A stretch of 64,000 nt of DNA. Origin: Chthoniobacterales bacterium. Lineage in GTDB: Bacteria > Verrucomicrobiota > Verrucomicrobiia > Chthoniobacterales > UBA10450. Below the pieces are notes generated by a model. The model was given only the letters and a program-made list of their open reading frames with translations. It made no database searches and was not told the DNA's origin. Positions 6,447 to 19,068 of this stretch are shown in pieces. The DNA lies in contig DASXEB010000016.1 of NCBI GenBank assembly GCA_036490335.1, forward strand, positions 70,489 to 134,488, in the 5' to 3' direction. How positions within the stretch are numbered: position 1 is the stretch's first letter; each line of letters begins with the position of its first letter. The position numbers and the translations under genes are program-made.

Positions 6447-7685
6447 TTAGGCGCGACCCCAGATCATGGCGACGCTTGTCGTGAGGCTTCCGCCCATGTT
6501 GAAGGTGAGAAATTTTTTTGCGCCTTCGATTTGGCGCGCGTTGGCCTGGTTCGTCAGTTGCTGGTGCGCTTCGTAAACCTGACGCACCCCGGTCGCGCCG
6601 ACCGGATGTCCGTCGCCAATCAAACCGCCGCCGACGTTGACCGGAATCTCCCAACCGATTTTCCCGCTCACATGTTCGCCGCGCACTTGCGGCAACGCGG
6701 TCGCGCCGCTTTTCGCCAGTTCCGCGCCTTTGCCCGGTTCGGCGAGGCCGAGAATTTCGTAGGCGACGATTTCGGTGATGGAAAAACAATCGTGCACTTC
6801 GACGCCATGCATGTCGCGCGGTTTCAGATTTGCCATCGCAAAAGCTTTCTCGGCCGATTTGCGAGCGGTCGAAAAAGTCGGCGCGTCCTTTTTTTCCAGC
6901 GCGAGATAATCGGTCGCGCTGCCAAAACCGAGCAGTTGCGGCAGGGTCGATTTATCACGGCCGATGCGATCGAGATATTTTCCCGAGACGAGCACAAGCG
7001 CGGCAGAGCCATCGGTGATCTGCGAACAATCGGAAACGCGCAGCGGCGGCGCGACGCTCGGATTTTTTTCCGACATCTGCGAGGCGTCGTCGTAGGTCAG
7101 GTTGGCGTCGCGCATTTGCGCGAGCGGATTGAGCCGTGCGTGCGCGTAGTTCTTGTAAGCGACGGCAGCAAGGTCGTTAGGCGTGGCGCCGTATTTCTCG
7201 ATGTAAATCTGCGCGATGCGCCCGAACAATTTCGGGAACATGAAGTCGCCGTATTCCGGTTTCTCGATGTGATAATCGGCCGCTGCGCCGAGCACGTCAG
7301 AGCCGTCGAGCGACGACATCGTTTTCTGCTGTTCCGCGCCCACGACGAGCACCGCGTCGTGAAAGCCGCCCATGATCCATTGCGCGCCGAGGAGCACGGA
7401 AAGCGCGCCGGATGCGCAAGCCGCCTCGGTGTGCATCGTGGGAATGCCGTGCAGCTTTTCGTCGATCTCCGGGATGAAGGCGCCGAGATGGAGCTGCTTC
7501 GTGAATTGCCCGGCGTTGAAATTACCGACCGCTGCGGCCTCGATCTCGCCGGCGTCGATCTTCGCGTCCGCGAGCGCCGCGCGGCCCGCTTCCTTGATCA
7601 GGTCGCGAATGGTTTTGCCTTCCTTGCGGAGGTTGCGCTTAAAGTCAGTTCGGCCACCGCCGAGGATGTAAACGGGTTCGTTCAT
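6447..7685 (-). CDS. Thiolase-family protein (SCP-x / non-specific lipid-transfer-type thiolase)
   Basis: 412 aa. Has a thiolase-like active-site region HTEAACASGALSV and a C-terminal GGGLIGDGHPVGATGVRQ. Confidence 0.75.
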   Translation of the reverse strand: MNEPVYILGGGRTDFKRNLRKEGKTIRDLIKEAGRAALADAKIDAGEIEAAAVGNFNAGQFTKQLHLGAFIPEIDEKLHGIPTMHTEAACASGALSVLLGAQWIMGGFHDAVLVVGAEQQKTMSSLDGSDVLGAAADYHIEKPEYGDFMFPKLFGRIAQIYIEKYGATPNDLAAVAYKNYAHARLNPLAQMRDANLTYDDASQMSEKNPSVAPPLRVSDCSQITDGSAALVLVSGKYLDRIGRDKSTLPQLLGFGSATDYLALEKKDAPTFSTARKSAEKAFAMANLKPRDMHGVEVHDCFSITEIVAYEILGLAEPGKGAELAKSGATALPQVRGEHVSGKIGWEIPVNVGGGLIGDGHPVGATGVRQVYEAHQQLTNQANARQIEGAKKFLTFNMGGSLTTSVAMIWGRA

Positions 7686-7882
7686 AGAGTGCGAGCAAGC
7701 TAAGCCAGCACGCTCGAACTGTCATCCCGAGTGCTTTTGCGGATCGATGAGTTCATGCAAAGTTGCAGAGTCGATGACGCACGATCGACCTTCGCCACAA
7801 AATGCTTTTGTAGGATGGGGATTCGGGCGTAGAAATGGGGAACTGATCGATAGATCATTAATTCTTTAATGGAGCCCGAACA

Positions 7883-9373
7883 ATGATACAGCCACAACCC
7901 TACGTCCCGACCGCACGCGAGCAGAAGTTTCTCGAGGGCGTCGAAGAAGGCCGCTATGAGCGGGAAATTATTAGTGGGCTCGCCCCCTTCTTCAACGAGA
8001 AGGCTCCGGCGGACATGCTCAGCTTCTACTCCCCGGACGAGGTGACAAGGCTGAAGGCGCTCAAGGGCACCGATCGTGACGTTGAAGCCCGGATGCCCGT
8101 GAAGATCACGCGCCATTACTACGAGCTGGCCAGGACCAGCGCCGCGATTCAGCGCATCGTCAAGGCGGACCCCGGCGAGACGATGGATCTTGCGGGCGCG
8201 GAGGACCCCGGCAACCAGATGGACTACAGCCCCGTCGAGGGCCTGCTGCACAAGTACGAGATGGGACTCATGTACGTCATTTCGACCTGCTCGGCACATT
8301 GCCGCTTCTGTTACCGCGAAGAATTGATCGCCCGTAAGCAGATCAAGCGGCAGGACGGCACCATCGCGAAGAAAGGTCTCGCGTTGATCCCCGACATCAT
8401 CCCTTACATCAAGGCGCACAACGCGGCCGTCGCGGCCAACGGCGGTGTGCATCCCGAAAGCGGACGCGAGAAGCTGCGCGAGATCCTGATGTCGGGCGGC
8501 GACGCGATGGTGCTGAGCAATTCAAAGATCGCGGCCTGGCTCGCCGCGCTGGCCGAAGCCGGCGTCGAGTCGATCCGCATCGGCACCAAGGACATGGCGT
8601 TCTATCCCCAGCGCTTCGACCGCACCTTCCTCTCGATGCTCGATCGGTTCCACGAGACCTGGCCGCAGGTCGGCTTGCATATGATGCTGCACTTCGAGCA
8701 CCCGGACGAGTTCCTGGCTAAGGATGCGGAAGGAAACTACGTCGAGGATGCGCAGGGCTTTAAGCAGTGGGTCCCCGCGACGGGCGAAGGGATGCGGGGC
8801 CTGGCCTCGCGTGGTTGGCTCACCGTGCAGAACCAGGCGCCGATCATGAGGGGCATCAACGATGACCCGGACGCTCTCCGCATTCTGCAACGCGAGTTCA
8901 AGCGCGCCGGCGGCGAGAACCACTACTTCTTCTGCGGGCGCGACATCGTCGCCTACAAGGCATTCAACGTCCCGATCGAGACCGCGTGGAATATTCTCAA
9001 CGAGTCGCAAAAAGGGCTGTCGGGCGTCGAGGCGCACGCGCGCCTTTCCATCACCCATTACAAAGGGAAGACCGAAGTTTCAGCGGTCACCAACGAGGCG
9101 ATACCGGGACTCGCGGGCAGCGAGAATGGCGTCTTGATCTTCAAGATTCTTCGGAACGCCGGCAGCGCTCCGGACCGCGGCAAGGTCTGCATCGTCGGCC
9201 GCAACCCCGAGGCGCTCTGGTTCGACGACTACGAGGACCGCGTTCTGTTCGACGAGGCCGGCTTGTATCACTACGCGCGGGTTTCGAAATCCGGACAGGC
9301 GCCGGGTCACGCCACGGCTGCCGGACAGGCGCCGAGTCTCGGCGCTCTTCAAGCCGCTCTTGTCGCCGGGTGA
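7883..9373 (+). CDS. KamA-family radical SAM aminomutase (lysine-2,3-aminomutase-like), 496 aa
   Basis: CSAHCRFCYRE is a CxxxCxxC cluster in KamA-like context (MYVISTCSAHCRFCYREELI). GGAG lies 9 nt upstream of the ATG. It is longer than classical KamA, and substrate is not assignable by eye. Confidence 0.75.
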   Translation: MIQPQPYVPTAREQKFLEGVEEGRYEREIISGLAPFFNEKAPADMLSFYSPDEVTRLKALKGTDRDVEARMPVKITRHYYELARTSAAIQRIVKADPGETMDLAGAEDPGNQMDYSPVEGLLHKYEMGLMYVISTCSAHCRFCYREELIARKQIKRQDGTIAKKGLALIPDIIPYIKAHNAAVAANGGVHPESGREKLREILMSGGDAMVLSNSKIAAWLAALAEAGVESIRIGTKDMAFYPQRFDRTFLSMLDRFHETWPQVGLHMMLHFEHPDEFLAKDAEGNYVEDAQGFKQWVPATGEGMRGLASRGWLTVQNQAPIMRGINDDPDALRILQREFKRAGGENHYFFCGRDIVAYKAFNVPIETAWNILNESQKGLSGVEAHARLSITHYKGKTEVSAVTNEAIPGLAGSENGVLIFKILRNAGSAPDRGKVCIVGRNPEALWFDDYEDRVLFDEAGLYHYARVSKSGQAPGHATAAGQAPSLGALQAALVAG

Positions 9374-17777: not shown

Positions 17778-17890
17778 TCGAACGATCTGACAGTCAGGCC
17801 CACTTCCAAACTCACTCCCGTTCGAAGACCGTCGCCAAGCCTTGTCCGACCCCGACGCAGAGCGACGCGATGCCGCGCGCGGCGCCAGTG
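17778..17890. repeat. att-like direct repeat, copy B (functional 3' end of the thiolase gene plus flank)
   Basis: See copy A at 15920-16033. Confidence 0.75.
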
Positions 17891-19017
17891 CGAGCCATCT
17901 GGTGGATCAGCGTCGTGGCCAGGCGGGCGCCACTGCAACCAAGCGGGTGACCGATCGCAATCGCGCCGCCGTTGACGTTCAATTTTGCGTTGTCGATGCC
18001 CAGCTCGCGCTGGCAGGCGAGGGCCTGCGCGGCGAACGCCTCGTTCAACTCGAACAGGTCGATGCGGTCGAGCGTCAGGTTCGCGCGCAGCAGCGCCTTG
18101 CGCATCGCGGGCACGGGCCCGAGCCCCATGAACGCGGGATCGACGCCGGCCGCGGCGCTCGGACCGATGAAGGCGATCGGCTGAAGACCCAGCGATTTGG
18201 CCAGCCCGGCTTCAACGATCAGCAAGGCCGCCGCGCCGTCGTTGATCCCGGACGAATTGCCCGCGGTCACCGTGCCTTGGTCGTCTTTGGAGAAGGCGGG
18301 TTTCAGCTTGGCGAGACCCTCCAGCGTCGTGCCCGGCCTCGGGTGCTCGTCCACGCTGACGAGGGTCGGAGCGCCCTTGCGCTGCGGAATCTCGACGGGC
18401 ACGATCTCCTGGGCGAAGAGCCCGCGTCCCTGCGCCGCCGACCACCGTTGCTGGCTCTGCAGCGCGAACTGATCCTGATCCGCCCGGCTGATCTGGTGCT
18501 GGCGGGCGACATTCTCGGCGGTCTCGCCCATGGAGAAAGGGTGATGCAGCGCCGCTAGGCGAGGATTGACCAGGCGCCAGCCGATCGAAGTGTCGAAGAT
18601 CTGCTGCGACCGGCCGAACGCGGTTTCCGCCTTGCTCAGCACATAAGGTGCACGGCTCATCGACTCGACGCCGCCCGCGATGAAGACATCGCCGTGATTC
18701 GCCTCGATCATGCGCGCCGCGATGTTGACGGCTTCCAACCCCGACGCACAGAGGCGATTCACCGTCGAACCCGGCACGGACGCGGGGAGGCCCGCGAGCA
18801 GCGCGGCCATGCGCGCGACGTTGCGGTTGTCCTCGCCGGCCTGGTTGGTGGCGCCGAAGTAGACATCCTCGATCAAGGCGGGGTCGATGCCGGATCGCGC
18901 CACCACGGCCTTGATGACGTGGGCGGCCAGATCGTCGGGGCGAACCGACGCCAATGCGCCCGCGTGCCGGCCGACAGGTGTTCGGAGAGCCGTGATGATC
19001 GCCGCTCGCCTTTGCAT
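17812..19017 (-). CDS. Acetyl-CoA C-acetyltransferase (thiolase II)
   Basis: TVNRLCASGLEAV (active-site Cys), GNSSGINDGAAAL, NVNGGAIAIGHPLGCSGARL. Confidence 0.9.
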   Translation of the reverse strand: MQRRAAIITALRTPVGRHAGALASVRPDDLAAHVIKAVVARSGIDPALIEDVYFGATNQAGEDNRNVARMAALLAGLPASVPGSTVNRLCASGLEAVNIAARMIEANHGDVFIAGGVESMSRAPYVLSKAETAFGRSQQIFDTSIGWRLVNPRLAALHHPFSMGETAENVARQHQISRADQDQFALQSQQRWSAAQGRGLFAQEIVPVEIPQRKGAPTLVSVDEHPRPGTTLEGLAKLKPAFSKDDQGTVTAGNSSGINDGAAALLIVEAGLAKSLGLQPIAFIGPSAAAGVDPAFMGLGPVPAMRKALLRANLTLDRIDLFELNEAFAAQALACQRELGIDNAKLNVNGGAIAIGHPLGCSGARLATTLIHQMARTGAARGIASLCVGVGQGLATVFERE

Positions 19018-19068
19018 CTAGATTTGATCGCGTCGCTGCATGAGCAATGTAATAGGGCGCGACGCTCG

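Follow-up and report, generated by a model that had tools for sequence, protein, structure and literature searches.

Acquired genes lack uptake sequences, which build up in them after transfer (PMC2817400, PMC7371117), and Neisseriaceae have genomic islands poor in such sequences, such as the gonococcal genetic island and the integrative and conjugative elements found by mapping gaps in the distribution of the DNA uptake sequence (DUS) (PMC7371117). Islands of this kind are therefore already familiar, since word-free gaps that mark acquired DNA are established in both Neisseriaceae and Pasteurellaceae. Here, a window of 64 kb (the whole stretch of DNA analyzed, from contig DASXEB010000016.1 of one Chthoniobacterales metagenome-assembled genome [MAG]) was mapped for the 9-base sequence TCGTTAGGC (reverse complement, GCCTAACGA), referred to below as the word. 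A block of ∼11.3 kb, consisting of a core operon with nested cargo, contained no copy of it. The explanation that we favor, with a probability of roughly 0.85, is that the block is a catabolic operon from outside the lineage that was recently passed between species and later loaded with defense genes. As in the DUS-poor islands of Neisseriaceae (PMC7371117), resident DNA is marked by a short word at about one copy per 0.4 to 1.1 kb and acquired DNA appears as long word-free gaps, so that the present case agrees with them both in its logic and in how large the signal is. Unlike those islands, the host is an uncultured soil member of the Chthoniobacterales, for whose word an uptake role is proposed by analogy, and the block carries no conjugation or integration genes and is common to ∼20 species at a single locus.

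Across the window, 73 exact copies of the word were identified (46 on the plus strand and 27 on the minus strand), compared with ∼0.4 expected from base composition, an enrichment of ∼175-fold; outside the gap the density was 1.40 per kb. The sequence-only reading had reported that no exact copy lies between those at 7174-7182 and 19066-19074, and this was confirmed, with both flanking copies as placed; the 7-mer GTTAGGC was likewise absent from 7183-19065. The resulting gap spans 11,892 bp, nearly fourfold the length of the next largest in the window (3,051 bp). The same reading had expected ∼17 copies, with a probability of zero copies below 1e−6; at the density outside the gap, the expectation is 16.7 and the Poisson probability of zero is 5.8e−8. 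The remaining gaps were near-exponential in length (coefficient of variation, 0.90), and the Poisson test is therefore fair; gaps of 3.05 kb and 2.3 kb fall within the Poisson expectation for 72 gaps. When 73 points are placed uniformly over 64 kb, a largest gap of this length has a probability of 1.5e−5. One-mismatch variants of the word were at chance level in the block (3 seen versus 2.4 expected), whereas outside it they were enriched 3.5-fold (40 versus 11.4). The DNA outside the block is ordinary core chromosome with normal word density, including genes for FadB-like, MgtE, HflX, MiaA, catalase, Ku, AmtB, and GyrA proteins.

Two controls that are independent of composition gave the same picture. 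Peptide sites compatible with the word were encoded by it at 54 of 73 positions outside the block (18 of 20 for Ser-Leu-Gly) but at none of nine inside, where 7.3 would be expected from the outside occupancy (P of zero, ∼3e−8; Fisher P = 2.4e−5 versus outside). The intergenic DNA of the block (1.0 kb) also held no word, against ∼4.4 expected (P = 0.012).

The word behaves as a lineage-specific DNA-level signal and not as a protein motif. It was found in all four stop-free frames and in both orientations, it often provides stop codons (as GCC-TAA or CGT-TAG), including that of the right-flank gene u468 at 19069, and noncoding DNA, ∼8% of the window, holds 26% of its copies. On these grounds (four frames, both orientations, stop codons, and occurrence between genes), a protein motif was rejected. 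Usage at compatible sites is high in spite of the rare codons that it imposes, such as TTA and AGG, and word pairs in opposite orientation and 20 to 30 bp apart were present at 5527/5547 and 38830/38857. Positions flanking the word showed weak preferences only. Copies overlapping gene ends were observed at, for example, 6444, 19066, 20516, 22069, 28999, and 45036. A role as Chi or as an FtsK-orienting polar sequence (KOPS) was also rejected, given a strand split of merely 63:37 and ∼175-fold enrichment at 1.4 per kb.

By density, length, strand symmetry, and coding behavior, the closest analogue of the word is a DNA uptake sequence. Like DUS and the uptake signal sequence (USS), it is short, hundreds-fold overrepresented, spaced at ∼1 per kb over both strands, and lineage specific, and it occupies any permissible frame, is enriched between genes, and forms inverted pairs. 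As described for USS and DUS (Findlay and Redfield 2009, PMC2817400), it occupies more than one reading frame of coding sequence and influences which codons and peptides are used, is lacking from genes that have no homologues in relatives, and accumulates after transfer. Unlike them, its occupancy of compatible sites is very high, it often supplies stop codons, and close relatives differ widely in its density (0 to 1.4 per kb), with AAGATCGACA dominating in other lineages. Searches of the literature returned nothing on the word itself, and for uptake sequences in Verrucomicrobia, Chthoniobacter, or Udaeobacter they returned only primers or nothing relevant.

Relatives were scanned with the u468 protein, using one genome per species, which returned 80 loci (L001 to L080). 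Word density was 0.05 to 1.24 per kb in Chthoniobacterales relatives, and the word was absent from more distant Verrucomicrobiota. Among the 80 loci, densities of 0 to 1.24 per kb were seen at similar u468 identity, and in low-density relatives most words occupied a subset of the word positions of the window. Because densities differ in this way and positions form subsets, the word seems to be gained or lost at very different rates in sister lineages. Many native positions are common to species with saturated synonymous sites, the copy at 19066-19074 being conserved in many relatives; the word is thus old and slow to accumulate. A second dispersed word, AAGATCGACA (reverse complement, TGTCGATCTT), was found at 1.3 to 1.5 per kb in L026, L041, and L042; L026 holds both words at high density, and the window has a single chance copy of AAGATCGACA, at 12418. 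Together, TCGTTAGGC and AAGATCGACA look like uptake sequence "dialects."

The block occupies the spacer between two native genes of a lysine/fatty acid catabolic cluster, u468 and scpx (Table 1). The last word copy before the gap lies within scpx, and u468 comes after genes for a class III aminotransferase ("lat") and an aldehyde dehydrogenase. Many of the more distant Chthoniobacterales have scpx immediately after u468, an arrangement that provides an empty site against which the borders could be read. Homology with the empty site stops at 7731-7732 and block-side homology (91 to 94%) begins at 7731-7735, placing the left junction at 7731/7732, exactly at the retained end of a miniature inverted-repeat transposable element (MITE)-like sequence; the right junction is at ∼19057/19058. 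In L033, L034, L040, L045, L066, and L077, the empty spacer is filled by this palindromic MITE-like element (GTCATCCCGAG...CTCGGGATGAC). In L003, L019, L022, and L090, the block meets u468 or the aldehyde dehydrogenase gene with its aminomutase end instead of its thiolase end; the block end in the inverted L090 is as in the window (7733), and in L003, L019, and L022 homology begins within ∼125 bp.

Both junctions also bear on the possibility of an assembly artifact, by which foreign DNA was misjoined into the contig. The source is a MAG, and a short-read assembly of that sample is interrupted at the repeat. However, both junctions recur in many independent assemblies, including contigs of megabase scale, which excludes misassembly as an explanation with any real claim to belief.

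Several lines of evidence place the origin of the operon outside the lineage. Beyond its own clusters at 90% identity, the aminomutase has its next relatives at 77 to 87% identity, and every named one of these is from Phycisphaerales or Planctomycetota; with Phycisphaerales/Planctomycetota proteins it shares 77 to 85% identity. In L081 (Phycisphaerales), a gene for an RpiR-type regulator is followed by the aminomutase, CoA-transferase A, CoA-transferase B, and aminotransferase genes and then by a directly convergent thiolase gene. The five operon proteins are 66 to 85% identical to those of L081 (75% for the thiolase), and order and orientation are alike. The compact operon was also present in more than 25 metagenome contigs (GC content of 46 to 72%, many of them aquatic), with 10 to 40 bp between the aminotransferase and thiolase genes. 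No copy of the word was found in the Phycisphaerales operon or in any of these contigs. Native u468, by comparison, is at most 62% identical even in other orders of Verrucomicrobiota. Composition is deviant as well: with the word masked, the k-mer check suggested by the sequence-only reading gave tetranucleotide distances of 0.27 to 0.34 across 8-19 kb versus 0.15 to 0.22 elsewhere, and GC in the block ranges from 0.53 to 0.68 against a background of ∼0.59. An empty site, deviant composition, and a gene history incongruent with that of the host are among the features by which genomic islands are recognized; signatures of mobility, another such feature, were lacking for the block as a whole. 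We infer that the operon entered a Chthoniobacterales lineage from outside, with the direction of transfer taken from the operon being far more diverse outside the clade than within it.

The sequence-only reading had divided the block into three modules, namely, (a) the aminomutase, CoA-transferase, and aminotransferase genes, (b) the Dcm, GHKL ATPase, and Vsr genes, and (c) a two-gene cargo with an att-like duplication, and all of these were present. Its assignment of the thiolase gene, as probably the native last gene of the lat operon, did not hold. The thiolase gene adjoins the aminotransferase gene in Phycisphaerales and in the metagenome contigs, is missing at the empty site, and is 95 to 97% identical in DNA between species, which makes it the fifth acquired gene; module (a) and the thiolase gene are a single, convergently ended five-gene operon. 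The pristine state is seen at this site in a soil contig, L102, with scpx, the operon, 99 bp, and the thiolase gene and with neither the four-helix-bundle cassette nor cargo. Module (a) thus forms one unit with the thiolase gene, and modules (b) and (c) were later insertions into that unit.

The block was present at this locus in at least 20 related species, in which u468 is followed by the thiolase gene and, where contigs extend so far, by the operon in the same order. DNA identity to these relatives is 93 to 97% in the block, 84 to 89% in u468, and 73 to 82% in genes farther away; the aminotransferase protein is 94 to 97% identical between species. Synonymous divergence is 0.07 to 0.23 in the block versus 0.3 to 1.8 in the flanks, ∼10-fold lower, and noncoding parts of the block are as conserved as its genes. 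For 105 species pairs, thiolase distance (median, 3.2%) showed no correlation with u468 distance (median, 16%; up to 32%) (Spearman 0.13; P = 0.18). Identity steps down away from the block edge (0.96, 0.90, 0.78), consistent with hitchhiking of flanking DNA in homologous recombination. We infer from these data that the block spread recently and horizontally between species.

It could be argued instead that the block is native and old, that purifying selection on its proteins removes word-creating substitutions, and that its low divergence reflects a slow rate of change. The operon proteins are indeed unusually conserved (the aminomutase, u496, is ∼84% identical across phyla), module (a) and the thiolase gene hold one word-compatible peptide site each, and uptake sequences prefer poorly conserved genes (PMC2817400). 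Protein constraint, however, yields neither ∼10-fold-lower synonymous divergence nor conserved noncoding DNA, nor would it uncouple block distances from host distances, all of which recent horizontal spread can produce. The empty site in many relatives and the deviant composition also stand against a native block, as does the absence of the word from all six compatible sites of the restriction-modification cargo and from the intergenic DNA. A native block has already been largely refuted and is considered very unlikely.

The absence of the word is a property of the block across species. In 20 relatives, 2 words were found in 141 kb of block versus 126 in 246 kb upstream, and eight word-rich relatives had none in the block against ∼48 expected. 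The sequence-only reading had named normal word density in the same block at the same site of related genomes as an outcome that would speak against acquisition; the same block does occur at the same site, but it is word free there. A few words have arisen in the block, at the same position of coaB in L091 and L107 and in the aminotransferase gene of L103, and the block is not refractory to them. As its residence is ∼1/10 of the interspecies divergence and words are gained slowly, zero to few copies are expected. The earlier proposal that transfer is younger than the time needed for word amelioration is reasonable on the same logic, given that word positions are shared at synonymous saturation.

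Vsr-type repair biases oligonucleotide frequencies in Escherichia coli, and a restriction-modification/Vsr module sits within the block, which raises the possibility that the word is actively excluded, for example, as a target or self-marker of Dcm/GHKL/Vsr or of some other defense function. This fails because the Dcm/GHKL/Vsr module is private to this genome among the relatives examined, whereas the block is word free in ∼20 species with other cargo or none. Moreover, the word is overrepresented rather than avoided in the rest of the genome, and words have arisen inside the block in some lineages, as noted above. In L102 the block has no restriction-modification cargo, although that lineage has very few words anyway. 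Active exclusion is accordingly regarded as highly improbable, and a tie between the word and the Dcm/Vsr of the island was rejected for the same reason, the module being private and the word-free state clade wide.

That the word-free DNA is acquired and composite, as the sequence-only reading had concluded, is thus borne out by five kinds of evidence independent of the word: the empty site, tetranucleotides, synonymous divergence, uncoupled thiolase distances, and the position of the nearest outside operons in another phylum. The word map and several independent tests are in agreement.

The operon has itself been a target of insertion. A four-helix-bundle ("23S rRNA intervening sequence protein") cassette of ∼430 bp, flanked by 31-nucleotide AT-rich inverted repeats and with an open reading frame (ORF) at 10711-11136 (likely ATG, 10804), replaces the 39-bp coaB/aminotransferase junction, found intact in L099, L102, and L103, and alters the ends of both genes. 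The Phycisphaerales operon lacks the cassette, and among copies of the block it is present in some and not in others. In the window, the Dcm/GHKL/Vsr module (cargo 1) adjoins the aminotransferase gene. The GHKL protein weakly matches the BbrUII/HgiDII restriction enzyme family (E value, 0.0019) and MzaB and is probably a restriction component. Cargo 2 is a 1.7-kb insert of two ORFs next to the thiolase gene, and it lies between 114-bp direct repeats of the thiolase 3′ end, as in att duplication, with the target 3′ end on both sides. No recombinase match was found in its two ORFs, and no fixed att core was identified. The six mismatches in the 114-bp repeat approximate the divergence of the thiolase gene between species, so that cargo 2 may derive from the corresponding locus of a different species. 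Of its ORFs, the smaller (for which the public gene call takes a 131-amino-acid ORF) had no match in Pfam, NCBIfam, or PADLOC, and the 268-amino-acid protein has 47 homologues in all, some adjoining UvrD, methyltransferase, PIN, and ResIII genes. A recurrent thiolase-linked cassette was unsupported, as homologues of the 268-amino-acid protein occur in other defense-like contexts with no thiolase fragments nearby.

Integration hotspots for defense genes occur between conserved chromosomal genes. The aminotransferase/thiolase junction resembles them in having a variable, AT-richer segment between conserved convergent genes, with different defense genes in each genome. In 13 relatives this junction ranged from 99 bp to 6.2 kb and had 13 different contents, consisting mostly of defense genes, with a cargo GC of 0.51 to 0.58 in the 12 of 13 that carry cargo. 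Pfam matches among the 49 cargo ORFs of relatives included C5 and N6/N4 methylases, Vsr, NotI-like and Eco29kI-like nucleases, an AbiEii-like ATPase, GHKL ATPase, TIR, Macro, deaminases, and reverse transcriptase. The junction differs from known hotspots in that its anchor genes belong to a recently transferred operon and are far more alike from species to species than the rest of the chromosome and in that orphan 3′ ends of these anchors, the thiolase and aminotransferase genes, remain as marks of past insertions. Such thiolase fragments number up to five in relatives, and L009 has three of the aminotransferase gene; orphan-fragment loci were located in L010 (13600-15700), L006 (11800-15400), L002, L004, and L009. 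The units in L010 are ∼480 bp and alternate with the palindrome CATACTTTGCAAAGTATG, which is also present ∼10 times in L006, and a tandem array of 21-bp repeats occupies 14565-15027 of L004.

The att-like 114-bp direct repeat around cargo 2 and the arrays of thiolase 3′ fragments in relatives, together with the discrete block ends that are identical in many genomes and the occurrence of both orientations between the same flanking genes, could suggest a self-mobile element (an integrative element, transposon, or phage-like island), either the block itself or one that carries it, whose own recombinase directs it to the spacer and which bears no host words. However, family scans found no integrase, transposase, or relaxase gene among the proteins of the block in the window, nor was any of these seen among the 49 cargo ORFs of relatives. 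The block ends have neither terminal inverted repeats nor a target site duplication, a direct repeat being found only at the nested cargo 2; a transposon-like or integrase-driven origin of the whole block was rejected for these reasons. The starting points of the orphan thiolase fragments vary, which agrees better with insertion driven by homology than with a fixed att site, and the block was never seen away from this locus among the Chthoniobacterales loci examined. A self-mobile element is therefore an unlikely explanation.

Under the explanation favored here, that of an acquired operon passed on between species, the operon would have entered a Chthoniobacterales lineage from outside and then spread recently between species, likely by homologous recombination in the genes on either side. 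The aminotransferase and thiolase genes, being nearly identical, would next have become anchors for the swapping of cargo at their convergent junction, the cargo in this genome being the Dcm/GHKL/Vsr module and the 1.7-kb insert that duplicates the thiolase 3′ end. Meanwhile the word, most like an uptake sequence, would build up slowly in resident DNA, and the block would have no words yet because it has been resident for no more than ∼1/10 of the time separating the species and because its cargo turns over.

Some observations weigh against this account or limit it. The block is found in both orientations among species, which a single insertion followed by spread does not by itself explain. 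The identity gradient in u468 could reflect domain constraint and not hitchhiking, and the interphylum donor and direction rest on identity levels and diversity rather than on a rooted tree. As the operon proteins are very conserved and only two sites accept the word without amino acid change, protein constraint may contribute to the absence of the word from module (a) and the thiolase gene. Lastly, the gap distribution is that of 64 kb of the genome, and the uptake role of the word is drawn by analogy.

The function of the operon can be addressed through its family matches. The aminomutase, with the CxxxCxxC radical-S-adenosylmethionine (SAM) motif of KamA-type 2,3-aminomutases, was labeled KamA by the sequence-only reading. 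The family was right, but the protein is a distant member only: its matches to the NCBIfam KamA-family models (E values, 1e−18 to 1e−22; 67 to 80 bits) all lie below the cutoffs of 199 to 650, and the only PDB match was lysine 2,3-aminomutase 2A5H (E value, 8.5e−15). None of the other block genes matched KamDE, Kdd, or Kce, which with a bona fide aminomutase make up the KamA lysine fermentation pathway. The best family matches of the operon were instead to the β-ketoadipate enzymes PcaIJ and PcaF (pcaI/scoA, pcaJ/scoB, and pcaF), although the thiolase, with a gene GC of ∼68%, scored 569 bits against TIGR02430 (pcaF), just under the cutoff of 597. An exact-sequence lookup of the thiolase returned no record. 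A speculative route based on these assignments would run from 2-aminoadipate to 3-aminoadipate (KamA-like aminomutase), to 3-oxoadipate (aminotransferase), and through 3-oxoadipyl-CoA to succinyl-CoA and acetyl-CoA (PcaIJ-like CoA-transferase and PcaF-like thiolase). It presumes that the neighboring aminotransferase, named lat in the sequence-only reading, and aldehyde dehydrogenase turn lysine into 2-aminoadipate; the genes suggesting such a lysine branch span 7883-12479 and 17812-23459 of the window. A literature search on an aminoadipate aminomutase route found nothing relevant, either supporting or excluding it.

Coordinates of the block, its genes, and its flanks are listed in Table 1. 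The u468 protein had no Pfam, NCBIfam, or PDB match and may be an unrecognized enzyme of the neighboring pathway; it is ∼60% identical in contigs of MAGs labeled Ignavibacteriota and Bacteroidota. An Rfam scan of 6-20 kb gave no match.

Table 1. Features of the word-free block and its flanks, in window coordinates
Feature	Position	Strand	Evidence or remark
scpx, SCP-x-type thiolase-like gene, native left flank	6447..7685	−	Pfam Thiolase_C_1, Thiolase_N
Native remnant GTCATCCCGAG	7721..7731	+	End of palindromic MITE-like element; only copy in window
Whole acquired block	7732..19057		No word copy; deviant tetranucleotide signature
KamA-family radical-SAM aminomutase (u496), 496 amino acids	7883..9373	+	Motif CSAHCRFC; NCBIfam KamA-family models
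3-Oxoacid CoA-transferase A	9373..10083	+	TIGR02429, 339 bits; Pfam CoA_trans
3-Oxoacid CoA-transferase B (coaB)	10080..10736	+	TIGR02428, 294 bits
Four-helix-bundle cassette, secondary insertion	10731..11159	+	PF05635, TIGR02436
Class III (HemL-like) aminotransferase (at3), last forward operon gene	11163..12479	+	Pfam Aminotran_3; NCBIfam
Cargo 1, C5 cytosine DNA methyltransferase (Dcm)	12510..13730	+	Pfam DNA_methylase; PADLOC MTase_II, 296 bits
Cargo 1, GHKL ATPase	13741..15420	+	Pfam HATPase_c_3
Cargo 1, Vsr very-short-patch repair endonuclease	15384..15848	+	Pfam Vsr; PADLOC Vsr
Direct repeat, left copy (orphan last 26 thiolase codons plus 34 bp downstream)	15920..16033	−	blastn, 93.9% over 114 bp
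Cargo 2, small ORF	16294..16821		Alternatives 16294-16749 (−), 16426-16821 (+)
Cargo 2, 268-amino-acid protein, rare hypothetical family	16933..17739	−	Weak PADLOC PDC-S31 matches
Direct repeat, right copy (true thiolase 3′ end plus downstream)	17778..17890	−	94 to 97% identical to left copy
PcaF-like 3-oxoacyl-CoA thiolase, convergent fifth operon gene	17812..19017	−	Pfam Thiolase_N, Thiolase_C
First word copy past the gap	19066..19074	+	Its TTA is the TAA stop of u468
u468, native right flank, 468 amino acids, no family	19069..20475	−	Syntenic with lat and aldehyde dehydrogenase genes across Verrucomicrobiota

What is new here is the undescribed word or words, the multispecies sweep, and the nested defense hotspot. 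The limits of acquired DNA are given nearly to the base pair by word gaps, in a phylum for which no such word has been described, and this could be put to practical use in dating and delimiting horizontal transfer in Chthoniobacterales MAGs. The locus is an unusually clean case of a foreign catabolic operon swept across many species of a dominant soil group, and the sweep made long, near-identical tracts that now serve as a shared landing pad for defense genes. It also offers a lead toward natural competence and a possible new lysine degradation branch in these bacteria. That all of the more far-reaching proposals hold together, with TCGTTAGGC and AAGATCGACA as uptake sequence dialects, a sweep borne by transformation, an undescribed lysine route, and a platform for exchange of defense genes, is doubtful. 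Should they do so, the dialects would imply natural transformation in abundant, uncultured soil Chthoniobacterales, the word-free block would record how an operon that came from another phylum is still sweeping through many species by transformation, and its near-identical genes would form a platform on which defense genes are exchanged between species by homologous recombination.

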